From NCBI GenBank assembly GCA_965153355.1, contig OZ231126.1, positions 12,214,001 to 12,278,000 on the forward strand: DNA of 64,000 nt, written 5' to 3'. The notes under the pieces are model-generated. The model saw nothing but the letters and a program-made list of their open reading frames with translations. It was not told the origin of the DNA and searched no databases. The position numbers and the translations under genes are program-made. Positions 4,208 to 56,053 of this stretch are shown here, in pieces. This DNA comes from Flaccisagitta enflata (Eukaryota). Numbering within the stretch: the stretch's first letter is position 1; each line of letters starts with the position of its first letter.

Positions 4208-5588
4208 TAACAAAACACTGATCCCCTCGTGTCAATACTGAAAAATCTGAACAGTATCTGGGTCCGCGACGGAAGGGGGTTAAAGATCACTAATTCCTTA
4301 AGATCGCTATGACCAAAAGATCGCCAACCCTGTAAGTTCGCCAAAACTATAAGTCTACATTTAGAGCCGCCATACAAAGTTTCATGCAAATCCGTTGAAA
4401 AATGACAAAGTTATGCTCATTTTTCACTTTTAGCCTAGTAGGGTGGTTGGGTGGTAGGCTGGTTTAGATAAATAGTGTGCGTATGTTGAGTTCTTCCATT
4501 TAGAGACTCCATACCAAGTTTCAACCAATTTGGTTGAAAAATGTCCAATTTATGTAAGTTTTTACTTTTAGGCCGGTAAGCTGGTTGGGTGGTAGGTTGG
4601 TTTGGCCGGTTAGCATGCTCAAACATAAATAAATCACATACATGTGTTGAGTCCTTCCATTTAGAGACTCCATACTAAATTTCAACCAAATTGGTTGAAA
4701 AACGCCAAAGATATGCACATTTATCACTTTTTGGTTGGTAGGCTGGTTGGGTGGTAGGCTGGTTTGACAGGATAAATAGTGCGCATATGTTGAGTTCTTC
4801 CATTTAGAGACCCCATACCAAGTTTCAACCAAATTAGTTGAAAAATGACAAAGCTAAGAAAGTTTTTCACTTTTGGGCCGGTTGGCTGGTTGGGTGGTAG
4901 GTCGGTTTGGCCGGTTAGCATGCTCAAATGCATATAAATCACATACACATGTTGAGTCCTTCCATTTAGAGACTCCATACCAAATTTCAACCAAATCGGT
5001 TGAAAAATGCCAAAGTTATGCATGTTTTTCACTTTTAGGCCGGTAGGCTGGTTGGGTGGTAAGCTGGTTTGACAGGATAAATAGTGCGCATATGTTGAGT
5101 TCTTCCATTTAGAGACCCCATACCAAGTTTCAACCAAATTATTTGAAAAATGCCAAAGTTATGCAAGTTTTTCACTTTTAGGCCGGTTGGCTGGTTGGGT
5201 GGTAGGTCGGTTTGGCCGGTTAGCATGCTCAAATGCATATAAATCACATACACATGTTGAGTCCTTCCATTTAGAGACTCCATACCAAATTTCAACCAAA
5301 TCGGTTGAAAAATGCCAAAGTTATGCACGTTTTTCACTTTTAGGGTGGTAGGCTGGTTGGGCCGGTTGGGTTGGTCGGATCGCAAAAATCGGATAGGATG
5401 TAAAGCGCCCTACCCTAGTACAACTTCCCACCAAATATCAACCAAATCGGTCAAAGCATTAAAAAGTTATCCATTTTTTAAAATCCGTGACGACGACGAC
5501 GACAACGACAACAACGACAACGACGACGACACCCACCCGCCTTGAATTATAGTCCGCGTCGGAATGATATTCCGTCGCGGACAAAAAG
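4208..5588 (-). mobile_element. Helentron-like element, family F2, with internal 144/162-bp satellite array
   Basis: GTCCGCGACGGAA at about 4262 is inverted to TTCCGTCGCGGAC at about 5570. Terminal hairpin GTCCGCGTCGGAATGATATTCCGTCGCGGAC, (GAC)n tract, tandem units about 4385-5365. Second copy at 13750 in opposite orientation. Confidence 0.8.
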
Positions 5589-6205: not shown

Positions 6206-9621
<3,416 letters not shown>

Positions 9622-13666: not shown

Positions 13667-15803
13667 CAGTTGACCCCCGCTCTAACGGGCCCGCCATTAA
13701 CGGAATTTCGCTTATAACATGTGCAAATGCATGGTCTCTTCAAGTTTATTTTTTTTGTCCGCGACGGAATACCATTCCGACGCGGACTATAATTCGAGGC
13801 GGGTGGGTGTCGTCGTCGTCGTCGTTGTCGTTGTCCACACTTTTAAAAATGGGCTAACTTTTGAACGCCTTGACCGATTTGCTTCATATTTGGAGGGAAG
13901 TTGTATTAGGGTAAGCCGCTTTGCAGCCTATGCGTATGTGATAATCCGACCCACCCAACTGGCCCAACCAGCCTACCAGCCTAAAAGTGAAAAACGTGCA
14001 TAACTTCGGCATTTTTCTACTGATTTGGTTAAAATTTGGTATGTAGTCCCTAAATGGAAGAACTCAACATATGTATTTGAATTGTAAAGATTTAAGCATG
14101 CTAACCGGCCAAACAGGCCTACCACCCAACCAGCCTACTAGCCTAAAAGTGAAAAACGTGCATAACTTTAGCATTTTTCAACCAATTTGGTTAAAACTTG
14201 GTATGTAGTCTCTAAATCGAAGGACTCAACATATGTATTCTATTCGTAAAGATTTTAGCATGCTAACCAGCCAAACCAGCCTACCACCCAACCAGCCTAA
14301 AAGTGAAAAACGTGCATAACTTTGGCATTTTTCAATCGATTTGGTTAAAACTTGGTATGTAGTGTCAAAATGGAAGGACTCAACATATATATTTGATTTA
14401 TAAAGATTTTAGCATGCTAACTGACCAAACTGGCCTACCACTCAACCAGCCTACCAGCTTAATAGTGAAAACTGTGCATAACTTCGGCATTTTTCTACCG
14501 ATTTGGTTAAAATTTGGTATGTAGTCCTAAATGAAGAACTAACATGTATTTGAATTGTAAAGATTTTAGAATGCTAACCGCCAAACCGACCTACCACCTA
14601 CCACCACCAGCCTAAAAGTGAAAAACGTGCATAACTTTGGCATTTTCAACCGATTTGTTAAAACTTGGTATGTAGTCTCTAAATGGAAGGACTCAACATA
14701 TGTATTTGATTTGTAAAGATTATAGCATGCTAACGGCCAAGCAAACCGCCATTATACGCCGTTTGACAACGCCGTTTGACAACGCCGTTTGACAGTGCCG
14801 TTTAGCAGTGCCGTTTGACAATGCCGTTTGACAGCGCAGTTTAACAGCGACGTTTAGCAACGCTGTTTGACAACGCCGTTTGACAACGCGGTTTAACAGC
14901 GCCGTTTGACAACGTCATTTAACAGTGCCGTTTGACAACGCCGTTTGACAACGCCGCACAATAACGCCGTTTAACAGCGCCGTTTGACAACGCCGTTTGA
15001 CATTCCGTTACCGCGCCGCGCGAGCAGCGCCGTTGTCGCGCCAGTTATCGCCGTTGTTCGCGCCGTTTGACAACGCCGTTTGACAACGCCGTTAACCGCC
15101 GCGCGTTGACAACGCCGTTCCGTCGCGCGTTGCGCGCCGTTTGACGCGCCGTTGTGCTGGTTGCTCGCCGCCGTTTGTTTTCATGCATTGACAGCGCCCG
15201 TTTAACAGCGCCGTTTGTGCCGTTTGACATACGCCGTTTAACGCTCGCCCGTTTGACAATGCCGTTGACATACGCCGTTGTCAGCGCCCGTTTAACCGCG
15301 CCATTTGGCAAGCGCGTTGTTAACGCCGTTTGACAACGCCGTTTGACAACGCGCCGTTTGACCGCGCCGTTTAACTGCGCCGTTTGACAACGCCCGTTTG
15401 ACAACTCCGTTTATTCGCGCCGTTTGACAACGCCGTTTGACAACGCCGTTGACAATAGCCGTTGAACAACGCCGTTTGACAACGCCGTTTGACAAACGCC
15501 GTTCCGACGCGCCGTTTGTCGCTATTTGACTCGCGCCGTTTGACAACGCCCGTTTGACTTAACGCCGTTTGACAACGCGTTGACACCGTTGTCGCCTTGT
15601 TTGATAACGCCGTTTGACAACGCCGTTCGACAACGCCGTTTGACAACGACGTATGGCTACGCAGTCTGGACAACGCCGTATGACCCCAGTCGCGGACCCA
15701 TACTCTTTTAAGATTTTTATTTTTTTATGGCAATAACAAAAGTTCACTTAAAACAGAAAAAAATTGTTGGTCTCCAGAAATCCTTTAGGGCGGGGTTCAA
15801 CTG
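13667..15803. mobile_element. TA-flanked mariner-type MITE interrupted by an F2 element
   Basis: TA|CAGTTGACCCCCGCTCTAACGG ... TTAGGGCGGGGTTCAACTG|TA. Intact 178-bp relative at 22296-22473. Confidence 0.8.
13750..15725 (+). mobile_element. F2 Helentron-like element with a ~155-bp array (13945-14745) and a 13-bp array GCCGTTTGACAAC (14757-15680)
   Basis: T-run then GTCCGCGACGGAATACCATTCCGACGCGGAC hairpin; far end GTCGCGGACCCATACT matches the end of the 4208-5588 copy. Confidence 0.8.
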
Positions 15804-18761: not shown

Positions 18762-19957
18762 CTTTTTTTATATCAGTATCTCTATCTCTCTCGCGCGCGC
18801 GGGCACTCGCTCGCTCGCGCCTTCGTTACTTTTTTTCCTGCCTCACTCTTTTTTTTTCTTAGCTTCTCTTCCTTCTCCCATAACTTGACACTGTACCGCC
18901 TCCTCCTCCCTTTGATACTTCTTTCGCTCTGCCTCCCTTGTCCGAACAAGTTGATTTCTAATTCTATCATCGCCGGTACAATTCTGAACACGCGCAATCG
19001 TCGTCGTCGTCACCGTCGTCGTTATCGTTGTCGTCGTCGTCGTCGTTCACGTTGCCGCATGTGACGAAGACGACGACGACAAAGACAAACGCCATCTATT
19101 GCCGTCTCGTCTTCTGCGCGCGCGCGTGCGTGTGTGTGTGTGCGTGTGTATCCCTCCCGGCCATCACGGCAGGAAATTGAATTGGGAATAGGGGAATAAA
19201 AGGTCCTTACCCTTTCAAGTCCCTTTGATAGTTTACTCGATGTGTTTACACTGGAAAAGAGGCCAGAAACACTTTTTCTCTCAATCACTTCCATCCACCA
19301 CAAGATATAGTCCTCCTCGCCGCTGTTGTGTGAGAGGAAGTAGTGAGACATCTTGATTAAAAAAAAAACAGCTTTTTTGTCCATATTATGTCATACAAGG
19401 TTGTATGGTTTTATGTCAATTGGCACGGAAGGGAATTCCGAGACGAACTTTTCCACAGCTGTTGGACCATCAGAGATAGACTCAAAACTAGCTCAGTCTT
19501 ATGTGTTTACTCGCGAAGTCAAGTTGGGGCAGACGGAATTACCCTAAACCAATCATGAGGGGAATGTCTGAATGTCTGATGTTAATGATTTCGAAGAAGG
19601 TTGTTAGATCTATATAGTTTGGAATCATGAAGAGACATGGAGACAGTAAACGGAAGTTTTAGGTCCTCTCTTATTGAGTCTGTTGTTGTTTGATACTAGG
19701 CGATGCTTGATACTGTCAAAATCACAATAATCATAAAACTAAAAATAGTTATATCGAATTTTTTTGTCATGGCAGCTTTGGTTTGATACTTGCCTCATCA
19801 TGAATTTCATTTTTATTCTTTTTCCATGTACGGTATTGGCCCTGTCCCTGGATTTCACCTGACTCAATCTGTGGATTTTATCTCTTCCGTCATACCGCTC
19901 ATCTGTGGACAACACCCTCTTCATTTCTCTCATCTCTGAATGCCCATCTCACTTCAG

Positions 19958-19963
19958 AATGGG
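19958..19963 (+). CDS. sowah: 6-nt microexon (Asn-Gly) of the SOWAH-like gene
   Basis: Pyrimidine tract ...catctcacttcag|AATGGG|gtaagt. Phase 0-0; yields NG-GYTALH with the next exon, matching the xNGGYTxLH ankyrin linker as I recall it from invertebrate SOWAH proteins. Confidence 0.7.
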
Positions 19964-20252
19964 GTAAGTGTATTTTAAATCGACCATAGCGACTAGCTTT
20001 GGTACATTGACCAGTCAACCATGATTCTTAGATCACTTATACCACTGCTTCGTCACGCACCACGAGTCCGTGGTGGTGCCTTATTATTACTACGCACATG
20101 GCCAGCTATTAACACCCCACACTACGGCACATGTTCAACACTCGTCGAATTGAGTGACATATGTATCAGTCTTTTTACTCTTTGGGGCCCCCTGGAACGA
20201 GGGTCTCTAAGAGCCTGTCAGTGGGTGTCCCATGAGCTGTGAGAGCGAGCGC

Positions 20253-20308
<56 letters not shown>

Positions 20309-20847
20309 GGGACAGCCATTGTGTGGATGCGGTTGAGTAGCGACCCTGAGGGAACGCAGAGGTCCTGTCCTCACATAATTCATCTCTTCTGATGCAATAA
20401 TGACGATTTCATGCGAAATCTTTGGATACCTTTGTTTCCCCCTGTCTTTTGACTCAGTTTAAAGCCTTTAGTGTTGTATGTCCTTGAAAAAATTAGCCTT
20501 GAGTTCCATAATAATATGCTTCGTCAATGATAGTATTTTCATGCGATTCTGAACATTGTTGTTTATGAATTTCAGTGAGTTACTGTTGAGAGAACATGAA
20601 ATTGTGATATGCGTGCATGTACTACACGGTTTCCTGCGCAAAATTGTTTTGTGAACAGACAAACTGGAAACCGAATTCTACCAAAATTCTTGGTTAGGAG
20701 GTGACTTAATAGTTGGTGCAAGTCTGGGTTAATAAAAAGAAGGCAAACCACCGCTGCCATTTGGTACTGCGTAACACAACTCCTGGGCAATACATCCTTT
20801 ACAGTATCCCTTTGACTCTTGTCATCCATCCAATTTTCACCCTTTTA

Positions 20848-20981
<134 letters not shown>

Positions 20982-21229
20982 GGTACATTTCATATGATGA
21001 ATAAGAAAGAGAATGGATGGAAAACGCTAAAGAGGATGTAGTTCTGTGATGGAAAAAGAGTTAGGAAACCGTTCATGTCAGACAACTCTTAGGAACCTTG
21101 TTACTGAGGCTCATACATTTTTAAGCAGGTTATCTCCAACCCATTTTCTGACTCGTTCACTTACTCTCATCTCTCTCTTTTTTTTCCATACTTTTTTCTC
21201 TTTTGTATGTCTGTCTCGCTTTCTGTCCG

Positions 21230-21439
21230 TTTTTAGGTCCCATGCAATGCGACTCCGTACGCCGTCGCTCTTGGTCCGTCGGTCGGTCCGTCGGTCAATA
21301 CCAGGGGTCGGTTGAAAAGTTGATGAAGCGCGTTTTGCGCGTAGCGTTGCCGTTTCTGCCAAAATTCCTTCCCGGCCTCCTTTATCAATGCCCCTACCCA
21401 TTTGTACCTGACCAAGGGTGCCGTGTATCCGGCCTTGTT
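21230..21439 (+). mobile_element. Short DINE-1/HINE-like element
   Basis: GTCCGTCGGTCGG tract and end GCCGTGTATCCGGCCTTGTT. Confidence 0.65.
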
Positions 21440-21445
21440 ACATAG

Positions 21446-21690
<245 letters not shown>

Positions 21691-22037
21691 CATTGGTGAG
21701 GAAGACTCGAAAATTGGGAGAATAAGTTTCAGGTGCTTTTTTAGCATGTGTGTGGGGGCTGGGATGTGGATTGGGTTTGGATGCCCCTGCCAACCCGTTC
21801 GCAACGATATTGTGACCCCGCGTCACTTGTTATGCCACTTTCTTGCGGTCCCAATGATTATCAAACGTGTTCGCTTCCAACGTTTTGTTACCATCACCCT
21901 TTTATAGAACCCGCTGGCTGGACGCTTCCCCTTTCCACTTGGAATGTTCATCTTCCAAAGATGTAAAGTTACCCCCGACCCACTTTTTCTCCGCCATTTT
22001 CCTCTCTGTCTCTATTTCTCTCTCTTTCTCCCTGTCT

Positions 22038-22140
<103 letters not shown>

Positions 22141-22295
22141 CTTTTTCTATTGCCCCTCTTCGTTTGAGAGGAGATGAGAGATGATCTCTATTCGTCTTCA
22201 TGGCCTCAATAGTTAGCCCCAAGGTTGGGCAAAGGTCACCCGGCTCAAATGAAAGACCAGGTGTAAAGATGTGATACGATATTGCTATATATTTA

Positions 22296-22473
22296 CAGTT
22301 GAACCCTGCTCTAACGGATTTCAGAGGACTAATAGTTTTTTTTCTATTTTACGCGGACTTCTGTTTTTGCCAACAAAGAAGATAAAAGAAATTAACTTGA
22401 AGAGACCATGAATTTGTATTTGTTAAAGGCGGAATTTCGTTGTTGGCGGGTCCGTTTGAGCGGCGTTCAACTG
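22296..22473. mobile_element. 178-bp mariner-type MITE, TA TSD
   Basis: TA|CAGTTGAACCCTGCTCTAACGGA ... TCCGTTTGAGCGGCGTTCAACTG|TA. Confidence 0.85.
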
Positions 22474-23385
22474 TAGTTTGAGTCGCGTGCAAGATCACAC
22501 GTTAGTATGTGATAAGGTTTGAGTCGCGTGCAAGTTTGGGTGTAATACCAGATACTCGCGTGCAAGAATTGTGGTACAGATGTACCCGACCGACCAACCG
22601 CTCGTCCCATGTTCGTATATCTATGCTTTGCCTCTCTTGGGCGCGATAACTTGAGAACAGTGAGATTGCATCATCTCCGTACAAAAGAGGACGCGTAATT
22701 GTCTACGTACTTGACTGAAGTTGCACGACGTAGACGCATCATCGTACCCCCTCCCCTGGCGGTACTTGCATTCCTGCTCCTGCCCAATACTTCGCAATCG
22801 TTGTTACCATGAGTATATCTAGTAGGATCCTAATTGTATCCCATGTGAAAAAAAAATCGTTCTGTCTCAGTTCTCTCCATACAAATTCTTACTCGTTCCC
22901 ATACTCAATTACTCTTGATAAATATATGATGTACTGAAAAGGGAGATTTGATTTCTTGAGATTTATGATCCTCTTTTTGCCATTTTCGTCGTCAACGTCG
23001 TCGTCATCGTCGTCGTCGTCGTCGTCATCTTCCCCCTCCGGCGTACCGGCCTCCGTTCCATTAATTTCTATTCTCCTTTTCTTACCCAAAGATGAGAGAG
23101 AGAGAGAGAGAGAGAAGCAGCCAAAGCGATCTTGTGAGTTCAGAGATGGGAAGACGAAATGATGTCCCGCTTGCAGTACTTGATGTCCGTCTAGTGAATA
23201 TGATATCATTACATCTGTCTAACAGCCGCGGCTACGCCTCGCCTTTTGCCGCTGCTGTTGTAGCTGCCACTGCGGCAGCTGCGTTATCTCGCGGGTGCAG
23301 TGGCTGAGGCCAAAGTGGCTCTTTTGGCGCGCGTAGTCGCTTTCGGCGTTACAGCATTAAATCTCATCCGGTCCAATGTTGTACC

Positions 23386-23438
<53 letters not shown>

Positions 23439-23626
23439 AATTGATGATAATAACGACGATGGCAGTGATGATGATGATGAAGATGATGAGGATGATAGTG
23501 ATGATTATGATGAGGATGATAGTGATGATTTGGGTGATGACAGTGATGATAAAGATGATGATAAAGATGATGACAAAGATGATGATGAAGATGGACATAA
23601 AGATGATAAAAATGATATAGATGATA

Positions 23627-24217
23627 ATTGGAAAAAAGTCGAATTACGTAATTCGACTTTTTGAAACGTAGGGGAGAAATAGTTTTCCATTTTCGGTTTG
23701 GGAAGTTGAGCAGTTTTGGACTGGGATGATACATTTTGATATTCATAGCTAGAAAATTTATTTTCTCTTTCAAATAAGTGAAACAAAAGTATGATCATTA
23801 GTTTTATATGAATTTTTGAATCTTTTTTTATTTTTAGCGTTTTTGCAAAATCGATAATCGATCTCGTTTTTGGTTCTATGTGAGAGAGAAGAATCAAGAT
23901 GTTACGCAAATGGACCCTAACTTTTATGACGCTAGCTTTGCATTTGCTCTGCAGAGGAAAAGAAAGAGATAGAACAAGTACCAGGGAAGTGACGATCGTC
24001 CCATGCGCTTAGCGCCATTAAAGAATGATGCAATATTGCATCAGCCGTGAATGATCTGATAATTTGAGATATTTCCAAGATTCTGTGCATTTTCATCGTT
24101 CTCAACTTTCGATGCGGACCAACGACCGACCACCAACCAGCACCAGACGGACGGACAAAGCCTCTTATAGAGATGCGTGGACGCATCTAAAAAAGAAGAA
24201 GAAAGAGAGAGCATACT

Positions 24218-24292
<75 letters not shown>

Positions 24293-24462
24293 CACACACA
24301 CACACATACAAAGGAAGACCAAGAGACACCAAGAGACATATTGAATGACAAAAACAGACAGGCAGTCAACCAGACATCAAAAGATGCACACAGAAAAACA
24401 TGCACTGAAAAAAATGACTCCCATTTACGACTTTTTTCCGGTCGGCGAGAGCCGCCTTTATT
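23627..24462 (+). mobile_element. F3 element copy 2, inserted in a (GAT)n tract, with a nested short element (about 23970-24192)
   Basis: GGAAAAAAGTCGAATTACGTAATTCGACTTTTTG start; CGACTTTTTTCC..GGCGAGAGCCGCCTTTATT end. GAT repeats continue on both sides. Confidence 0.8.
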
Positions 24463-24579
24463 GTAAAGAAAGTAAAGATGGTAATGATGATGAAATTGAT
24501 GATGATTGCGATTTTTATAAATCTCCTGTCTCACGGCAATCTTTTCTTACTCGTAGCTCTCCCTTTCGTTTATTTCCAG

Positions 24580-24652
24580 GGATATACGGCGCTCCATCTC
24601 GCGGCCATGCAAGGACATCACGAAATCATGAGCATCCTCGAAGACGTTTATG
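24580..24652 (+). CDS. sowah: Ankyrin-repeat exon of SOWAH/sosondowah-like protein
   Basis: tttatttccag|GGATAT...GTTTATG|gtaagt. Translates GYTALHLAAMQGHHEIMSILEDVY(G), a canonical ankyrin repeat. 73 nt, phase 0 to 1. Confidence 0.9.
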
Positions 24653-25202
24653 GTAAGTTAACAAAGAACAAGCCCAATCGGACAGCTATGCGTCCGATCT
24701 GTGTCTGAGTGTTTGACGGACGCATCTAAAAATTGTGCTCATCATTTGTGTACTTGTGAAATGATCAATAGTTATTACAGATGCACTACAATCTCAAGTA
24801 AATTTTTCCGCCATGTAACATCCAGTCAAGCCCCCAAAATTGGAAAATTTGATTGATGAGAGGTTTGAAACTTAATCAATGATGAGTTTATCACGTCGTA
24901 GATAACAACGTTTAGCCGCCTTTTTCAAACGAAAATATCAACTATACAACGTTTGTATTGAACTGATTGTCAAAAAAACAAAACTGAAGAGGTTCTTTTT
25001 GGCTTTATCTTTCTCAGGCTCTCTCTCCCTCTCTCATATTAAGGGGTTCAAACGTGGTCTGGGCTTTGGTTCGGTCTTGCTTCAAAGCCTCGCATTTGGC
25101 AGTTCTGTTGATGAATCGGTTAGGCTCACTTGGATCACCTAGAGACTATCTTTCTCTGTCCCTTTTCTTCATGTCTTTCTTTCTGTCTGTCTGCCTCTCC
25201 TC

Positions 25203-25313
<111 letters not shown>

Positions 25314-26005
25314 CCCAAGTGAGTTCTTCCTCCAGTTTTTCTGGACGCCACGAGAAGGTGAAGGATTTGCTCTAAATTTCAAATTTGCCGCCACTTTTAA
25401 AGTTGCTTTTTCTGCTCTTTTGAATTTCGGGGTTGAACATTGAACAGACGTGACTACTTGAGTCTCTTTGTCGATGTCTGCCCACCATTCTCCAATTGAG
25501 AAATGCCTTACATGTGGAAGTCATGATCACTGATGAATATGTGACGTGACGGTAATAAGAATGGAAAAGAAACATGAATTGCTCCTTCTTCCTCTTTTTA
25601 GATTTGTTGAATTTTTATCATTTCCCTGAGTCCTTTTTAGGGAACCCACCATCATTTTACAATCACCACCCCACACTTTTCGAGCCAAGCACAATGCTCT
25701 TACATTTTTCCGAAAAATCCGAACGAGCCAGCAAGTCGAGAGGAATTTTGGATTTACTCCCCACATTGAAAACAAAGCATGTGAACGCCCTTAAGTAAGA
25801 GGGTCTCTAATGTTAACAAATGTCAACTGAAGTCGCTCCCAAAGACCCACACGTGTGGTTTTCGATGTTCCTTTTTTCTAAAGCAAATATAGTTAAAATA
25901 TCCAACTCTACAGAAGAGAAGGTGTGTTCTGGCAAATCGATATTAAATCTATCACGATATCAGCCGCCTCTCGTTGTTACACATAGTTTTGAAAATAAAA
26001 GAAGA

Positions 26006-26231
26006 AACAAGGCCGGATACACGGCCGATAAGCAGTCGCTTGCGGGTGGGCAGGGGCAGTAATGCGAGGGGGCAGGAGCAGTATGTGACTGGGCTGGGGC
26101 CGTAATGTGGGTGGGCAGTGGCCGTGATGATCAAAAATCGCTCTTTCACCCATTCAGATTTTCGCGTTCCCTTCATTCATTCATTCATTCCTTCAAACCC
26201 TCTTATAGAGTCGCTTGGCAAGCGACTAAAA
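26006..26231 (-). mobile_element. Short DINE-1/HINE-like element
   Basis: AACAAGGCCGGATACACGG at one end, AGTCGCTTGGCAAGCGACT hairpin plus A-run at the other. Confidence 0.7.
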
Positions 26232-26803
26232 AGATCCATTTTTACACAAACATGGATTTCTGTAATCCAAATTTTCTGTCGTATCGCGTTGATATGGTTT
26301 TATCAAATATACCACCCAAGATTGAATGAAAAAGATTTTGAGTGGATTTCAAACATATGCCACATTTATGCGTCTCTTAACTCGTATGTCTCTATCTTGT
26401 TCTCCTTTCCCTTTATTTTTCATGTCTCTATCTTTGTCTCATTTGCCTTGATTTTTCCCGTCTCTGTCTTTGTCTCGTTTGTCTTTATTTCTTACGTCTC
26501 TCTCTTCTCCTCATATTTTCGCGTCTCATGTCCGTTGTTGACGACCCCTTTTAGATGTCGACATCGTGAGTCTGAAGGAATATCCAAAGAATATCAAATA
26601 TAACAAGATTGACGAGCACAAAATGTACTCGCCCATTCAAACGAGATTACACGATTGGACGTTTGGTTGCGTAGGCACAGCTTTTAGGAATGTCAGTTTA
26701 TATGAGGTCGTGTCCGTTTGTTAGTTCCTTTCTCTGATTCTCTCTCTGCCAGTCTATCAAGTTAAGATGATCAACAGACAGCGTGTTGACCACCTATTTT
26801 GCT

Positions 26804-26838
<35 letters not shown>

Positions 26839-26985
26839 AAAAGCGCCGTGGTACACGTTCACAAACATTTTGTCAACAAACATTTTGTCGACAAATAAAT
26901 TTAGTACAACTGATGTTAATACATTGTAATAGAACGACGGCGTTTGGCAGCTGAACTGCCGACTGAAATGTCAAGTGGCGTATTG

Positions 26986-27431
26986 TTGGAAAAAAGTCGA
27001 ATTACGTAATTCGACTTTTTGAAACGTAGGGGAAAAATTGGGTTTTCGTTTTGATTGAGAAAGTTGAGCCGTTTTAGGCTTGGGTGATACGTTTTTATAT
27101 TCTGCATATTAGAAAGATTATTTTCCTCTTTCAAGTGGCGCAACCAAAAGTCTCCAGGATCATTAGTATTAGCGCTATGAATTTTTTAATCTTTTTTTAT
27201 TTTTTCGCATTTTGCAAAAATCGAGATTTTTCCTTGATCTTATTTTTCGCCCTATGTAACATGTGAGAAAAGTCAAGATGTTACACAAATTGACTCAAAA
27301 TTTTATGACGCTAGCTTTTAGATTTTCTCTGTGAAAGAAAAGAAAGAAGAGAATAGAAGGGAAAGAAAGAAAGACAGAGACAAACACTCCCCCAAACACA
27401 TTCTGTATACAAATTCACAGAGAGAGAGAAA

Positions 27432-27463
<32 letters not shown>

Positions 27464-27498
27464 AAGAACACACAGACACACACACACTTGCCTTCAGT

Positions 27499-27548
<50 letters not shown>

Positions 27549-27711
27549 AAAGACCAAGGAAGACCAAGAAAGAGAAGCAGCGAGACAGATTGAATGACAA
27601 AAACAGGCAGACAGTCAACCAAACATCATGAGATGCACACAGAAAAAGATGCATTGAAAAAAAAGACTCCCACTCACGACTTTTTTCCGATCGGCGAGAG
27701 CCGCCTTTATT
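26986..27711 (+). mobile_element. F3 element copy 3
   Basis: Same termini as 23627-24462, with internal GA and CA tracts. Confidence 0.8.
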
Positions 27712-27985
27712 GTAATGCAGTTTTGACAAGAGATGCTGTAGTGGTCGATCTTGCTGCTGCTTCCAATATTCCCACCCACCAAAATAGAAGCGAGGAACAG
27801 ACTTTTGACACTGTCACTTTGTCAGTACCTCAACAATGTCATTGACTATAATGACGGTTGTGATATGGTTTGAGAACTGCCACCTTTGAGGAAATATAAA
27901 AAGGTTTCTTTCATGAGGCTTTGGAGTTCTTTGGAGTTCTTTGGAGTTCTTTGTTGGTTGCAAATGAAATGAAGTAAATACAAAC

Positions 27986-28098
<113 letters not shown>

Positions 28099-28738
28099 AC
28101 TCTCTCTCTCTCTCCCTTCCTCCCTCCAAACGGCTCTCAATTTTACCTACAGAATCATTGAATGTATATATTGATGTAATTGACTTAATATTATCCGTAT
28201 CCGTATTAGTTCGATTGTCGTTGTTTTGAAAATGTCATTCTTGTGAATTTTTCTTTCGGTCTTCTTAGAATCGTATCCATTTTGACTGTGTTCTTTGAAA
28301 CACTCGAAAATTGTTTGATGTTGATTTAGATTTCCTTCATAATGGATCGATCGTAGAAATCTAACGAAGTCCTTGAAATGGCTAGTTGAAGAGATCAAAG
28401 AACTTCTTTCGATAAAGAAACATTTGCGCTCACAAGTGTAATATTACCCGCGCCGTACCAATATCATGACTAGCGCAAAACGGAATAAAACTAAGCCTAG
28501 GGTGCCTGTATTGCAGCACATTCCAGTCATTCCTTGCTCGTTAACTCTGTAAGATGGTCTATCCACTGATCCGATGTCCGTTTGTCAGTTCGCGATATTA
28601 CTCATAACCAATTTTAATGTCAGTCCGGCATAATTTCATGTTTATGTTTAAGGTGTCAACATGAGACGTGCACGTTTATGCATGCACGCACATACAAGCA
28701 TGGTATTACTATGTATGCACGCGCACACAAGCATGGTA

Positions 28739-29499
28739 CACCGTCTTTAAATCGAAATGGCAAATAGTAAACCTTTGTAGCTCCAAAATTACTAGCCCAA
28801 AAGCCTTCAAATTTTCAGTGAATGTTAGTAACAACTGACCATTTTTTCATGCCAAAACTCAGATTCTATAACTGAATAGGTTGGGGGTCATTAAAGCATT
28901 GAAAAAGCTATCAATTTTATGGAAAAAGACAATTTGTCCCAGCTATACTTGGAAGAATCTTTTTTCTTTTAATGCTTTTTACCTGATTAAGCGAGCTTGA
29001 ACCCTGGAGTTGGTCTTAAATGAAGAGTTACAAATCATGAATATAAGTTCTGCTTGAAAATTTCATTATTTTATCGTATTCATGAAGATTTGAATGATTT
29101 TCAAATGATTGACAGTCTGGATTGTAGCAATGATTGCCAAAAACCAATGATAACTTCAATCTATATCCAACTTTTTTCAATTTTTTAGGTAATGTGTAAT
29201 CTCTGAAAAATTTCCTATCATTTGAGACCAACCCCGGAGTTCTAGCTCAATTTTTTTGACATCTGTACATTGATAAAGACAAGTCTTTTCAAATAAATCA
29301 AGAAAAAAAATTTGGCTCTGAAAATTGGGCATATTTTGTTTGTTTTACTGACCCCAATCTATTCAGTATTAAAATCCGAGTTTGGACATGACAAAATGGT
29401 CAGTTGTTACCAACATTCACTGAAAATTTGAAGGCTTTCAGGCAAGTAGTTTTGGAGCTACAAAGGTTTACTATTTGCCATTTCGATTTAAAGACGGTG
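28739..29499. mobile_element. MITE with long TIRs (about 150 bp or more), TA TSD
   Basis: TA|CACCGTCTTTAAATCGAAATGGCAAATAGTAAACCTTTGTAGCTCCAAAA and its exact reverse complement ending GACGGTG|TA. Confidence 0.9.
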
Positions 29500-29741
29500 T
29501 ATTACTACATGCGCATTTTTCAAACAGAAATCAGAATGCAGAAAATCAAAATTTCAAATGTGTTCAGTCGTTCCCACTCATTTTTCTTTTCTTTTTTTAT
29601 GCTAAGCTTGAAAACAATACTGCATTCATGAAATAGTGGCATTTATACATTTGTTAAAGCCACCCCTATAAAATTTCTCAAGGCAACTTTTAATTTTAAA
29701 GGCCAGGGTGGTTCATGATCGTCCAAAGTTCTTTCGTATTT

Positions 29742-29935
29742 CACAAGGCCGGATACACGGCTACCCATGTCGCTTGCGGGTGGGCAGGGGCAGTGACCAA
29801 CTAGGCAGTTGGGCGGTCGCTGTAACCCTAAAGCCGCCCGTAAACGCCGATGGACGGACCAACCAAGGAACCAACCGACGGACCGACCGACAGACAGACA
29901 GAGCGGGTTGTAGAGTAGCGTGCACGTGACTAAAA
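29742..29935 (-). mobile_element. Short DINE-1/HINE-like element
   Basis: ACAAGGCCGGATACACGGCTACC end, GACC/GACA repeats, imperfect terminal hairpin plus A-run. Confidence 0.7.
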
Positions 29936-30770
29936 ACTTTTCATCGTTTTTGTTCTGTTCTGGTTTTTTAGCGTGAAGAGGGTAACAAATAGCTACGAAC
30001 ATATATTTGCATCATCCGTCTCATCCATGGGCTTAAATTGGGCTTATGAGTCGGAATGAGATCTGACGCGTCTTTATCAATTAGTCAAAAAACGGAGTCC
30101 GACGTATCTCAGAGACTGCGAGTCTGACCAACATATCAGCGTGTGTCATTGTGACTTTTTTTCATGACTCACAACAATCGCCCTCAAGGCTCTTTTTCTC
30201 ACTGAAACGCAAAAAGGAAAAAAATGCATCTGACAAAAAGATGGGCAAGAATTGTTTTGGGACAGATGAAAGGCAAAAACTAAAAATAAAAAAGGGGGGG
30301 AGGGTTAATGAAAAAAAGAATTGATTTGACAAGATGGTCTTTCACTCTGATATTTCAAGTGCGACCATGAACTAAAGCAATATGCAACAATGTGATCCTC
30401 AAAAGGTGCTGTATGGCTTATGGGCAGCGGTGTCTTTGTCCTGCTTTGTAGGATTTTTTTTTTAAATTTCATCAATTTTTGTGAGCCTGGCAATTATGCG
30501 TTGATAAAACATAAATTTTTGAATTTCAATTTAAGCTAGTTTAACCTCATGGGATGGTGGAATGAAAAATGTTCAAAATTGAATAAAAACAGGTTTTTGA
30601 GATTTGAAAAAAATTTATACTATAATAGCTGCAAATTGAATGATACATGCGCTATCTAGGCTGCTTGCAAAAAAATGGGAATTTTTAACCAAAAATCGGT
30701 TAGTCGCCTGTCAGTTTCTATCTCGTCGTCCTGTGTTGAGTGACTGACTAGAGTAAAAGTTTGTGGGCGC

Positions 30771-30813
<43 letters not shown>

Positions 30814-31107
30814 AGAATGATTTTTAGAAAATGGCGGCGAAAAATTTTGTTTTTCTTTGATGTTGCGATCGGTTGAAGCGCTTGTTCGTTGTTGTCCGAC
30901 AAAATGTAGAATATAACTCTCTCGTCCATTTCAGAGATCCGAAAGCTTGTCAAAACTTTTTCTGGCTGATGTCGACAGGAAAGAGAGAGAGAGGGAAACG
31001 CCAAAGTCAAAAAATTGTTATGTTCAGTTTGATTTTGGAGTGATTGCTGGGTAATTGATCTTGATATATATCAGAGAGGAAGGCGAATTTTCTGTTGGAT
31101 GGTTGGT

Positions 31108-31171
<64 letters not shown>

Positions 31172-31491
31172 ATAATAGACGCAGATAAGTTTGTTGTTGA
31201 CTTGTGTATTTTTTTCGAAAAGAATGTGGATGTACAATTTGTGAGATCAGTTGCAATATCAAAGAAAAATCAAGCCACCACTCACCGGGATGAGGGGACT
31301 GAATGTTGAACCTTGAAAAGACGGCAGAATTTGGTGTTATCATTTTCATTCAAGGATACATTGAAAATTCAATGTTTTTTGAATGGTCAATGGACATGGT
31401 GGAAACTTTCCACGTTCGCGATGCGCATGTTATTTCGCCTCATCATTTTTATTTACTTTTTATCAAAAACCTTGCCTTTTGAAATGACAGT

Positions 31492-31683
<192 letters not shown>

Positions 31684-31686
31684 CAG

Positions 31687-32156
31687 GCGCCAATTCCAAC
31701 CTTCGCGATCACGGCGGAAAAAGGCCGAAGCAATACTTGAAGAACTCGACGGTTCAAATTCTGTTCAACGGTCAATCTTCCGGTCACATCACCGCCGCCG
31801 CCCAAGGCTTCGCACAACGTAGGAATTCCGCCATTGAGGCTGGTTTCGGGGGTAGTAGTGGCGGTATCGGGGGTGGTGGGGCTGGGGGTGGTGGTAAAGG
31901 TGGCGGGTTGAGTCTACATACGGGTCTTTTATCCCCCGGCGGGGTATCGCGAGGGAGCATCTCCTCGCCCACCAAGCAAATGATTTCCTCCCCCATTTCG
32001 ATGCCGTTTCATTCTGGCGGTCTGTCTGCCACTTCCTTCTCTCCATTGCCCACTTTGACCGAGACAGGCGCCTCCAGTATGGCCAAGTCAGGCGCCAGCA
32101 GCTTGGGCAAGTCAGGCGCCAATCTGGCCAAAACCACGCAGATCACTTATGTCTGA
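31687..32156 (+). CDS. sowah: Terminal coding exon of SOWAH-like protein (end of ankyrin domain plus Gly/Ser-rich tail)
   Basis: tttcag|GC completes Gly in phase 1. Translation (G)ANSNLRDHGGKRPKQYLKN resembles the SOWAH motif RDxSGKKxxQYL and runs in frame into ORF 31737-32156, ending TQITYV*. Confidence 0.85.
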
Positions 32157-38166: not shown

Positions 38167-39680
38167 TTACAAGGTTACTAAAGGCCTGATTTCAAGTATG
38201 TGTCTCCTTTCAAAGTCATCCAAAACTTCATCATTGGGATAGATCTTATATGTTTTTCCTTTATCATCCTTTGCTCTTGTTTTCAGAGCAGTGAGAGCTT
38301 GCACACAAATGCTATCTTGTTGCTGATTGTAAGATTGCACAGAACCAAGGTTCCAGCCATCTTCTTGTAATGTGACAACAAATTCTTCTTCCTGCAATGG
38401 CCAATTGAAGTCTTTTAGAGGCTCCTCCACAGGTACCCTAGACCTCTTGGCTTGCTTATTGGCAGACTGAGTACCTACTGACTCAGAAGCCACATAGACA
38501 TCTTCTACAGTAATGACCTCTTGGTCAGATGGGTCAACTGTGTGCAAAGCCCATGGAATTTTCTATTACATCTGTTTGGCTGTGATATTGCTTTGTTTGA
38601 AATAAACAAAGTCATTGGGCATTTCTGAAAACAAAGCCTTTTTCAACTTAACTTCTCTGCTCAGAATAGCCAACTGATCTGCCTCACTCAGCTTTTAGAT
38701 TCTGTCATAGCACTTTTTAGTACATAAAGAAATCAGTAAATTTTTGGCCAACTCTCTTCCCAGCTTGTCTGCTTCACTGTCTGTCAAGGCCAACTTTGCT
38801 TTCATGATCTCTTTCTGAGACTTTGAAAAACCTGCTTCAATTTGATGAACTTCTTTCTGTTTGGCCTTGAGCTCCTTGTCCTTCAACATGTTGACTCCCT
38901 CATTACCAAAGGCAAGATCTAAACTTCTTTTTAGCACAAGTCTGTCACTGATAGCTTGGAAAGCAGAACCTCACTTGCTACTTAGCTGTTGAAAAAAATC
39001 TCCAAAATAATTTTCTCCAGCTTTGTTGTCCACAGGGATGGTCGTAAGCTGTTCTTCAGTGAAGATTTCTGACAGAGGCTTTAAGTGTGTATCTCCCTGC
39101 TTTCTTTGCTGAGTATTCCAGATACCATGTACTTGAAAAACTATGTGATTATAGAAATCATCAACTTTGGAATAATGCTGCTCTTAAACGAATAAAGCTA
39201 CACTTCCCAGATTGGTCCTATTTTAAAGATTTAAAGATGGGCTTTGAAATGGGAGCAATCTGGAGCCTATAGCTTTACTCGTTTAGGAGCAATACTCTTC
39301 CAAAGTTGATGCTAATCTTAAAACTGCTGCGTTTCTTTCGGCGAAGATAGTATTCTGGAGCAAATTCATACTGAATTTCTCGTTGCCGTGACAGAGTTGC
39401 AGCAAGCTGTTTCATCAAGACTTGCATCGCGATTCATGACATCGTACTGCTCAAGATGTACAAAAAAAATCCATCATTCTTGTTTGTACTGTTTAAAATC
39501 CATCCTCAAGAGCTGGAAGAGCATGCCTTTCAACTTAGCTGAATTTCAAACCTGGGATTGGTTCCATCATTTGTTTGTACAAATTTTGAAGGATACTTCG
39601 AAGAGCCAAATGAGTTGGTCTAGGTTGCTGATCCAACAGAATGCAAAGAAGTGGCTCCATCAAATGATAGCCAATTAGAA
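38167..39680 (-). pseudogene. C-terminal remnant of a probable transposase with stops and frameshifts
   Basis: Collinear fragments LIGYHLMEPLLCILLDQ.., ..LAATLSRQREIQYEF.., EQLTTIPVDNKAGENYFGDFFQQLSSK*GSAFQAISDRLVLKRS.., WPLQEEEFVVTLQEDGWNLG.. lie inside the TIRs. Confidence 0.65.
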
Positions 39681-52481: not shown

Positions 52482-52935
52482 TCACGCTGATTTCAATTGA
52501 CAAACGAATCCTTGTCTCATGCCGCACGAATCGTTCCTCATTTCCATCACGTTTTTACCCCAATTTCTGGCTTTCCTGATTTCCACGCAATCGTACTTCT
52601 GAATGCGGGGATTGGTGACCGTTGGGAAACTCCTCATCCATTTGGGGTGCGTGGCTGGTAGATCGTTTCCGCTGTTCCATTCGTAGTCGTTCTTCATGTC
52701 CGATCCTCGAAGTTTCGCGCCCACGTAATAGGAGTTTGAACCCTCTCTCCTTGGCGGCTACGTCGAACCACGTTGGAGACAGATCCCGGGCCAGAAACCC
52801 GCCGCGGTCTTTACATTCCCGCTTCTCCCCGTCGTAGGTTTGATATTCTTTCAGACTCGATATCAGATACTTTTCGCCGCCAAACGTGAATTCCGTCCAT
52901 TTCAACCTCTCGATCTCTTTGACGGAATTTACCAA
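52482..52935 (-). pseudogene. C-type lectin-like domain exon with a 1-nt frameshift near 52737
   Basis: Acceptor caattccccacag|TTG. LVNSVKEIERLKWTEF..KYLIS..TYDGEKRECKDRGGFLA..ERGF / NSYYVGAK..YEWNSG..KW..P..DCV..RNDSCGMRQGFVCQ*: C-xxx-GG-x-LA, WIGL-like YVGA and terminal C..FVCQ motifs are split across two frames. Confidence 0.85.
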
Positions 52936-53112: not shown

Positions 53113-55725
53113 GAGTAGAGTAGAGTAGAGTAGAGATGTAGCGCCCCTAGACAGACCACACGGGTCCGATGGTGGGGGCCTCGTTGCTTGATTTATTTGC
53201 GCGATGGCGGATTCGTTCCTTCTAGAGATTCCTTTCCGTCGTCGTCTCTTCGCCTCCGCGCTGTCGAGTTTGATGAGACGCCCATTTATCGTAGGCGTTC
53301 TTGAAAGCATTTACGCTTTCCTTTTCTTTGACCCAGTCTGGAATTTCATTCCACTCCTTCGTTATCCGGACGCTGTAAAAGTTCTTCCTCGTCTCGAGCC
53401 GTGCTGTTTCCCCTTTCATCACATATTTGCGTCTTTTTTCTCCTTCCTCCGTTATCGTTGTGTTGCTCCTTGTCGGCCTCGCATCCTCCGACTCGAATGA
53501 GAACCATTTCTCCACTTGAACCCGGTTGAAGCCTTTAATTGTTTTGAAGGCTTCAATGACGTCTCCTCTTTCGCGTCTTTTCTCTAATGTAGTCAGACCA
53601 GCGTCTTTCAGCTTGTCTTCGTATGTGTCTCCTTTCACGTCGGAAAGCATTCGAACGAGCCTTTCTTGCACCTTCTCCAACTGTTTTTTGTCTTTCTCCA
53701 GCCACGGGCTCCATGCTGAGAACGCATATTCCAATTTCGGCCGAACAAACGTTTTGTAAAGTGGAACGAGGTAATCTTTTTTCCGGAAGTGGAATGCGCG
53801 TTGTATCTGTCCTAATGCAAAGTTGGCAGATCTCGCCGCTGATGTGCACTGCTTTCCCGGCTTCAGCTTTGCTTCAACAAAGACCCCCAGGTCTTTCTCG
53901 TCATTCGTCTCACTCAGCTCTTTTCCATGCATATAATATTTCCGTCGTGGGTTGTTGTGACCAACATGGATGATTTTGCATTTTTCCGCGTTGAATGACA
54001 TCTTCCACCTGTCCGCCCATTCAACCAAATTGGCGATGATTTTTTGCATCTTATCTCCGTCTTCCTCCTTTTCAATTGTCGTCGCCACTTTGGTGTCATC
54101 CGCAAACATTTGGATCAAAGCATCCTAAACCACTTTTCTGATATCATCAATAAAGATATCAAATAACGTTCCACCAAGGACAGAACCTTGGACCACACTG
54201 CTGAGCACGTCCACCCAGTCAGAGAACTGATCCTCCACTCTGACTCGTTGCCGCCTTCCACTCAACCAGTTTTTTAGCCATGCCAGTAGCTTGCCGCCAA
54301 TTCCAATATTTTTTAACTTCTCGATCAGTTTTTTATGACAGACCTTGTCAAAAGCCTTTGAAAAGTCTAAATAGACTATATCAAAGGCTTTTCCTTCATC
54401 CATCCATTTAGTTGTGACGTCCAAGAATTCAATCAGATTAGTCTGCGTCGATCTTCCCGTTCAAAAACCATGTTGTGCATCTGAGAGATGCCCGTTTTTT
54501 TCCGCATAGTTCATTAGAGCATCCTTAACTATGCGTTCCATCAATTTTCCTGCTATCACAGTCAGGCTTACTGGGCGATAGTTCGCCGGGTCAGCTTTGC
54601 TCCCTTTTTTGTATATCGGAGTGACCTCCGCATCTCTCCATTCGTCCGGGATGACTCCATCGTCCATCGATTGCCGGAAAAGACAAGCAAAAGGAACCGT
54701 AATTTCTTCCTTTAGCTCCTTAATCACTCTTGCCGAGACTTCGTCCGGTCCGCTAGCCGATTGTTCGTTCAACTTGTCAATTGCTGCTCCAATCACCTGA
54801 GGTGTGATGCATATGTCCTCCAAACGCGTCTCAATACTTGGTTCAGTTTCATCGGAATCCCCATCGCTTTTTGTGAATACTGAGGCGTATTGGTTGTTCA
54901 GCATCTGAGCTTGTTCATGAGGATCTGTCACCGCCACTCCACTAGCATTTTTCAATGGACCAATTTTTCCTCTCAACTTTTTTGCGCTGTTAATATATGC
55001 GTAGAAGGATTTGGGATTCGTCTTTCGGCATTTCATGATTTTTCTTTCTAATGCATTTTTTTTATTTTTGATCTTTTTTTTCACCTCTTTGACCGTTTTT
55101 TTATATTCCTCTTTGTCTGTTGCTCGTCCTGATTGCTTCATCTTTTTCCATGCATCTTTCTTCTTCTGGATACTTTTCTTCACTTCGTTGTCCATCCAAA
55201 GTGGCTCTTCAAGTCTTCTCATTCTTTTCATTGGAATGCATTTTGACATGAGATCTTTTATATAACCGCTTAGCATGATCCAATTTTCATTCACGGACTT
55301 CCCTCTCATCGATCCTTTCCAATCCATGTTTTTCACTGCATCTCGCATTTCTTGGAATTTTGCCTTTCTGTAGTCTGGAAGCGCCCGCTGAGTCGGTCCT
55401 TTGGGTCTATTTACACAAAGTTTGAAAGCTACGATGTCGTGGTCGCTTTTTCCTAGGCGCCCTTCCGTTGTCACCTCCGTAACCAAGTTTTCCTGATCAC
55501 ACAGTATCAGGTCCAAGATGTTGCCGCTTTTGTATGTGGCTTCCATGACATGCTGCTCCATAAACATCTCTGATGTGGCTTCGTAGAAGTTTCGGCCCTT
55601 TGATCCTGATGTTCCCATAAGCCAGTCTATGTCTGGAAAATTCAAGTCCCCGATTAAGACATTTTGTCCCTGCATTTCTCGTATCCACTTGCAGAGATCT
55701 TCGTCGTTTGATCTCGCCGAATTTG
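53113..55725 (-). mobile_element. 5'-truncated CR1-type non-LTR retrotransposon (partial APE endonuclease + reverse transcriptase)
   Basis: IGDLNFPDIDW, GNILDLIL, SDHD (endonuclease); NYRPVSLT, QHGF, YLDFSKAFDKV, VQGSVLG, FADDTK (RT). One continuous frame broken only by TGA at 54461-54463 and TAG at 54125-54127. 3' tail (CTCTA)n at 53113-53135. Confidence 0.95.
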
Positions 55726-55800
55726 AATTCTTTTCTGGGAGCCAAAAGTTGAAGCAACCAACGCGAAGGCGGTGAGAACGGCGTGGCCAAGTTGCATCAT
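55726..55800 (-). pseudogene. Signal-peptide exon 1 (5' part) of the C-type lectin gene
   Basis: caaaATG context; MMQLGHAVLTAFALVASTFG-SQKRI has a hydrophobic core and small residues at -3/-1, and stops where LINE similarity begins. Confidence 0.7.
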
Positions 55801-56053
55801 TTTGCGGTAGTTGTCCCCTAAATCTCACGGTTTGCCCCCCAGCACGTGCACAAAAATCCTGTTCAAAGATGAATTTTTGGGTTTGATTTGAATCATGATG
55901 ATGATGATGATGATAAAGTTTGGAATGATGATGATAAAGATTGGAATGATGATGATGAAGATTGTAATGATGATGACCACTTGAGTGACAGCAGCAGTTA
56001 CGCGCAATTACCTTTCTGGCTGAATGGTTTTTTTAAAATTTTCCAATCTCGTA

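Follow-up and report, generated by a model that had tools for sequence, protein, structure and literature searches.

The SOWAH-like gene of Flaccisagitta enflata raises the question of whether six letters, AATGGG, set between two very long introns, are a genuine coding exon and, if they are, whether this exon is a constant part of the mRNA or a switch. The window analysed here is a stretch of 64,000 nt of contig OZ231126.1 (forward strand, 12,214,001-12,278,000), and all coordinates refer to positions within it. The gene lies on the + strand. Just its last two or three exons are carried by the window, the N-terminal SOWAH winged-helix part being outside. The features of this 3' part are as follows, the six letters being entered as a probable microexon.

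19776-19955, + strand: AG-free zone of 180 nt, 69% C+T, ahead of the acceptor
19859-19863 and 19929-19933, + strand: candidate branch points CTGAC and CTCAT, by match to the consensus only
19956-19957, + strand: AG of the microexon 3' splice site, with cacttcag preceding AATGGG
19958-19963, + strand: 6-nt probable microexon AATGGG, Asn-Gly, phase 0 to 0 (from the sequence, a transcript contig and the homologous protein P0002)
19964-19969, + strand: microexon 5' splice site GTAAGT, identical to the donor hexamer that follows the 73-nt exon
19964-24579, + strand: intron of 4,616 nt from the microexon to the ankyrin exon, with many (CT)n/(AG)n arrays
24580-24652, + strand: 73-nt exon encoding GYTALHLAAMQGHHEIMSILEDVY plus one G, the start of ankyrin repeat 2, phase 0 to 1
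24653-31686, + strand: intron of 7,034 nt, the final 190 nt of which are a (TC)92 array that forms the pyrimidine tract for the terminal exon
31687-32156, + strand: terminal coding exon, (G)ANSNLRDHGGKRPKQYLKNSTVQ...KTTQITYV, with a TGA stop at 32154-32156

Downstream of the microexon the gene model is confirmed. The 73-nt exon is bounded by ttccag before 24580 and by gtaagt after 24652, while the terminal exon begins after the (TC)92 array and atttcag. The junction between 24652 and 31687 is backed by the ends of contigs from three metatranscriptomes (X1, X2 and X3), which read the first letters of the terminal exon. P0002, a 573-residue protein from a public transcript assembly that was found by a search with the terminal exon, contains ankyrin repeats and is the closest full-length relative. 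In a tblastn comparison with the window, residues 435-459 of P0002 match 24580-24654 (76% identity, E 3.8e-8) and residues 459-573 match 31686-32153 (52% identity, E 1.7e-34); residues 1-434 have no match anywhere in the 64 kb. Ankyrin repeat 1 and the rest of the 5' part of the gene are therefore encoded upstream of the window, more than 24.5 kb away from the 73-nt exon.

The name SOWAH-like is fair for this gene, since the search with P0002 returned proteins named SOWAHA, SOWAHB or SOWAHC by NCBI from Priapulus, Hymenoptera, an oyster and vertebrates. Like the SOWAHA/B/C proteins of Priapulus, Orussus, Ceratosolen and vertebrates, its product has two ankyrin repeats followed by a tail of the RDxSGKKxxQYL type, in the fuller form (G/K)A(D/N)xxxRD(Y/H)(S/G)GKKxxQYL, and where the repeats meet it has the x-G-GYT(A/P)LH junction of the named SOWAH proteins. 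The window encodes repeat 2 and the tail, and repeat 1 is seen only in the end of a transcript (...GADVNAKS) and in P0002. The N-terminus of P0002 aligns with the N-termini of named SOWAH proteins; the SOWAHA-C winged helix-turn-helix family, PF25877, is in the precomputed Pfam list for P0002 and not in our own hmmscan. Among the matches listed for P0002 in a search of protein representatives (at least 150), two of the three shortest (P0141 and P0153, the third being P0137) are SOWAH-like, and the other matches listed are long proteins with at least eight matched stretches, that is, with many ankyrin repeats. The C-terminal tail NSTVQxLFNGQSSGHIxAAAQGFAQR ... KTTQITYV is common only to P0002, P0003 and P0004. 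The last two, both homologues of the terminal exon, are open reading frames in which intron-like sequence is continued by the terminal exon of relatives, and they are uninformative on the junction before the 73-nt exon.

The surroundings of these exons are very dense in simple repeats. Tandem Repeats Finder reports 35 rows from 12000 to 32600, the majority being (TC)n/(AG)n arrays that reach 184 nt; a 162-nt unit is repeated 4.9 times at 13963-14740 and a 13-nt minisatellite 72.9 times at 14756-15684. At the acceptor of the terminal exon, the pyrimidine tract is a perfect microsatellite, (TC)92 (31495-31686), and 194 AG-free letters precede the AG. A dispersed element is present in three copies, at 24345-24470 and 27594-27720 on the + strand and at 6358-6576 on the - strand, and its read-through open reading frame starts with MTKT(D/G)RQST.H..MHTE. 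The first of these copies lies just 5' of the 73-nt exon, and a contig of X2 matches the element at 24474-24507 with three differences. Elsewhere, the remains of a non-LTR retrotransposon occupy 53222-56032 of the - strand (Exo_endo_phos_2, E 1e-7; RVT_1, E 1e-10 and 2e-6), with the reading frames split across three stop-to-stop frames, and are adjoined by a weak C-type lectin reading frame at 52482-52757 of the same strand (PF00059, E 5.8e-4, 21.0 bits against a cut-off of 22.6). Three adjacent open reading frames of 131, 91 and 70 residues at 38167-39183, also on the - strand, are of complex composition and have no Pfam match at E ≤0.01.

At the site itself the + strand reads ccctcttcatttctctcatctctgaaTGCccatctcacttcag/AATGGG/gtaagt, where the slashes mark the proposed exon boundaries. 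The enclosed piece, 6 nt long, is well within the 30 nt allowed to a microexon, is a multiple of three and has canonical splice signals on both sides (cacttcag/ and /gtaagt). Read as two codons, AAT GGG is in phase with GGA TAT ACG, the phase 0 start of the 73-nt exon. A longer coding exon that ends in AATGGG is ruled out, since an in-frame TGA lies at 19937-19939, seven codons 5' of AAT GGG. A CU-rich stretch, ccctcttcatttctctcatctctga, extends over about 19913-19939, and is followed by a TGC at 19941-19943, at positions -17 to -15, or 15-17 nt ahead of the microexon. Pyrimidines make up 70% of the 20 nt immediately 5' of it. The AG-free zone contains TCTC five times and CTCT four times, with UCUC/CUCU at 19917-19937 and 19947. 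Only 20 of the 3,383 AG-to-AG gaps in the window reach 180 nt and, by their coordinates, most of them coincide with simple repeats, whereas the zone before the microexon is itself non-repetitive, complex sequence. A pyrimidine-rich zone of this kind, free of AG over 180 nt, is the hallmark of a 3' splice site that is in use and whose branch point is distant.

The residues that these six letters would encode are found in the relatives. P0002 reads GVDVNSKS-NG-GYTALHLAAMQGH, with Asn-Gly at the position of the microexon. In an alignment of 30 SOWAH proteins, two residues stand in the microexon columns in 29, the first being Ser, Asn or His in 25 of the 30 and the second Gly in 25. Since the two residues are present in nearly the whole family, inclusion looks like the default. 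The sole gap occurs in a jellyfish gene model, P0205 (residues about 120-140), which reads ...DVNLKS-GYTALH and is exactly two residues short; judged by its sequence, this gap may reflect either a 6-nt exon missed in annotation or a real deletion. Its first repeat, with DFFTTALHW, likewise seems to be short by two residues. Two isoforms of the ant Odontomachus, X7 (P0192) and X6 (P0227), diverge right after ...SVNETTNG, which shows an intron at NG/GYT in Hymenoptera too, without implying that Asn-Gly is a separate exon there. Metagenome contigs contain no match to a degenerate GYTALHLAAMQGH pattern, and an alignment-based search of them for related loci gave 226 pattern matches, none of which was upheld by tblastn.

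Transcripts were aligned to 24470-25190, a stretch chosen to be free of long simple repeats, with the surroundings of the microexon and the terminal exon lying outside it. The 73-nt exon is covered by contigs of the three marine metatranscriptomes X1, X2 and X3 (three runs from two studies). Its 5' edge is crossed by one contig, X2 record 3 (178 nt, depth 10.3), which aligns to 24579-24653. Since it differs from the window at two of 75 letters, this contig may stem from another population or a sister species. Before 24579 it has an unaligned end of 34 letters, of which the final 30 are CGGCGCTGATGTCAACGCCAAATCGAATGG. With the aligned G the contig reads GGC GCT GAT GTC AAC GCC AAA TCG AAT GGG / GGA TAT, which translates as G A D V N A K S N G / G Y T. 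Thus, in the only mRNA-derived contig that crosses the junction (one of one), AATGGG stands immediately 5' of GGATATACG, and its Asn-Gly codons are spelled AAT GGG as in the genomic hexamer, one of eight possible spellings. The 21 letters before AATGGG in the contig have no match in the window, even with three mismatches allowed. The joins from mRNA to genome, that is, from the upstream exon to 19958 and from 19963 to 24580, are spanned by no contig, no partly spliced read was seen and the 6-nt piece is unalignable, so that support for these joins is statistical. None of the 12.2 million raw polyA reads of X5 was placed on 24470-25190, and this set has no bearing on the junction. A contig of X3 (record 5, 266 nt, no differences) begins exactly at 24580, the first base of the 73-nt exon. 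Its start could reflect a branching of the assembly graph, between two upstream forms or between spliced and unspliced molecules, or could be due to chance.

Taken as a whole, AATGGG at 19958-19963 is very likely a genuine 6-nt internal coding exon that is included by default. The AATGGG of the mRNA would originate from these six positions rather than from the end of the upstream exon. The upstream exon, beyond the window, would end in ...GCC AAA TCG (A K S), that is, ...GGCGCTGATGTCAACGCCAAATCG, and would be joined to the acceptor at 19957/19958; the microexon would in turn be joined through its GTAAGT donor at 19963/19964 to GGA TAT ACG at 24580. In partly spliced molecules the join between the microexon and the 73-nt exon would read ...ctcacttcagAATGGG/GGATATACG. 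On this model the microexon supplies the Asn-Gly, and its inclusion would be the default form of the mRNA.

The same transcript would arise if Asn-Gly were encoded at the 3' end of the upstream exon, which would then end ...TCGAATGGG (...GCCAAATCGAATGGG) before its GT and be spliced straight to 24580, leaving the intronic cag/AATGGG/gtaagt as an unused look-alike. Room for such an arrangement is given by the position of the upstream exon outside the window, with no read or contig that ties genomic 19963 to 24580, and the divergence of the Odontomachus isoforms shows an intron at NG/GYT, not Asn-Gly as a separate exon. The looser pattern AGAATGGGGT, taken alone, is also not rare: its expectation for the whole window is 0.21, and 16 of 100 shuffled versions contain a match. 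However, an unused look-alike needs several coincidences together. Between positions 1 and 24579 of the + strand there is one AG-N6-GTRAGT site, and this lone strong site (one of one) would have to agree with the mRNA at all six positions. Among the 56 sites of the weaker form AG-N6-GT in the same stretch, one codes for Asn-Gly, and this is again AATGGG; hexamers for Asn-Gly have a frequency of about 0.0013-0.002 per random position, or about once in 500-750. For AG-AAYGGN-GTRAGT the expectation is 0.01 per whole window on both strands, with a match in one of 100 shuffles. The look-alike would also have to sit behind the 180-nt AG-free pyrimidine-rich zone. An upstream origin of Asn-Gly is thus improbable. 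No other in-frame microexon candidate of 3, 9 or 15 nt with a strong donor was found; two 12-nt candidates with strong donors, at 4320 and 11522, have unrelated coding.

The initial annotation had chosen the site purely on its splice signals, with no relative in view, and the Asn-Gly of P0002 agrees with that choice independently. Its description of a CU-rich tract, the TGC and CAG/AATGGG/GTAAGT placed 4.6 kb before the GYTALH exon and in phase with it is correct on the sequence in every part. The genuine 6-nt coding exon in a SOWAH-like gene that it proposed is very probably real, as seen from the Asn-Gly of P0002, the AATGGG of the contig and the lone AG-N6-GTRAGT site; the AATGGG that it expected ahead of GGATATACG in transcripts was found in X2 record 3. 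It was also right that a microexon of this size is invisible to tracks of open reading frames, and the ankyrin inter-repeat loop to which it assigned the two residues is where the P0002 alignment, the Pfam Ank match and an AlphaFold model all place them.

The Pfam Ank profile matches residues 402-432 of P0002 to its positions 2-32 of 33, so that N433 takes position 33 of repeat 1 and G434 position 1 of repeat 2. In the AlphaFold model of P0002, based on a 30-sequence alignment and with a pLDDT of 93-98 over about 361-480, residues 433-434 belong to the loop 423-437, which connects helix 415-422 to helix 438-444. Asn-Gly is thus predicted to occupy the end of the loop between the repeats, immediately ahead of the first helix in repeat 2. 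The GYTALH motifs of the two repeats are 33 residues apart. With Asn-Gly, the canonical 33-residue spacing of the repeats would be kept, while without it the loop would be shorter and the spacing 31 residues.

This difference of two residues is the basis for regarding the microexon as a switch, a reading that refines the microexon explanation and is compatible with it. The exon would be alternatively spliced: neurons would include it by means of an eMIC-type Srrm activator bound to the UGC near the 3' splice site, it would be skipped elsewhere, and the protein would alternate between 33- and 31-residue spacing. The long AG exclusion zone, the UGC near the 3' splice site and the UCUC-rich tract, all three of which are present here, match the cis features of eMIC exons given in the available text of PMC8797185, and 283 of the 411 exon-microexon-exon microexons of Drosophila (68.9%) are alternatively spliced according to the text of PMC8042270. 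The start of the X3 contig exactly at 24580 could likewise point to a branching assembly graph at this junction. However, about one 30-nt stretch in three would contain a UGC by chance. AATGGG has a strong donor, GTAAGT, and long introns on either side (>19.9 kb and 4.6 kb), and differs in this from fly eMIC exons, for which the same text of PMC8797185 describes weak 5' splice sites and short flanking introns as fly-specific features. No skipped form was seen among the contigs; the one contig that crosses the junction (one of one) includes the exon, and it derives from bulk community RNA, not from nervous tissue. The presence of the two residues in 29 of 30 family members also argues against a switch, as do the seven annotated Priapulus isoforms, none of which has a two-residue indel at the microexon position. 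Regulated skipping is therefore possible but unlikely, and the default inclusion of a constant exon is the preferred reading.

 The toggle between forms with and without Asn-Gly under SRRM3/4 that the initial annotation proposed is not supported, with no skipped form seen and the residues constant across the family, and the Asn-Gly indel for which it suggested comparing SOWAH isoforms is absent from the seven of Priapulus. Of the eMIC-type signals, the long AG-free zone and the UCUC-rich tract fit; the UGC that it named is weak evidence on its own. A combined proposal would make the exon ancient (at least as old as the arthropod ancestor and perhaps as old as the cnidarian-bilaterian one), hidden in many annotated SOWAH genes, with the two-residue gap of P0205 as a possible case, and switchable through a UGC-binding factor of the eMIC type. 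This combination is unlikely; if it were true, regulated skipping would shorten the finger between the repeats from 33 to 31 residues and so retune the neuronal binding of the protein.

Recursive splice sites and recursive exons of long introns are a further comparison. The F. enflata site resembles them in its near-adjacent strong acceptor and GTAAGT donor, deep inside an interval of >24 kb that separates two exons, an arrangement that would allow the long intron to be removed in two steps. It differs from them in that the six bases of AATGGG would remain in the mRNA and be translated. A closer comparison is with the ultra-short coding microexons of at most 15 nt, constitutive or alternative, that are missed by annotation, as reported in the accessible portions of PMC8042270 for animals and of PMC8831610 for plants. 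Of the exon-microexon-exon microexons of Drosophila, 128 of 411 (31.1%) are constitutive in the first of these accounts. Like the members of this class described there, AATGGG is a frame-preserving exon of a few bases with canonical AG/GT boundaries, encodes conserved residues of a domain and is missed by ordinary aligners and by views of open reading frames. Unlike the ultra-short microexons surveyed in those portions, it belongs to a SOWAH-like gene and has a very long intron on each side (>19.9 kb and 4.6 kb). No literature that links "sowah" with "microexon" was found in a search of main texts, supplementary tables being outside that search.

The neural microexons governed by the eMIC domain of SRRM3/4 and Srrm234 form the second class to be compared. 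As set out in the text available from PMC8797185 (Torres-Mendez et al. 2022), eMIC exons of flies and mammals have a long AG exclusion zone, a UGC near the 3' splice site and UCUC polypyrimidine tracts, and in flies they combine weak 5' splice sites with short introns on either side. AATGGG shares with the class so described its length, the preservation of frame, the UGC, the UCUC-rich tract and the AG exclusion zone. It departs from it in that its residues are constant across the SOWAH family and are not an optional insert, and from the fly exons of that account in its strong donor and long introns. Overall, AATGGG adds one case to the well-described class of ultra-short microexons.

The case is an example of a coding exon that views of open reading frames or ordinary gene finders would miss. 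A protein predicted without the microexon would lose two conserved loop residues and would have a non-canonical ankyrin spacing. In this large, repeat-rich genome and in those of its relatives, gaps of two residues in conserved domains may therefore be missed microexons and not deletions. To our knowledge, little is known of the biology of SOWAH proteins; should the microexon prove to be regulated, it would help to show which surface of the SOWAH protein is important.
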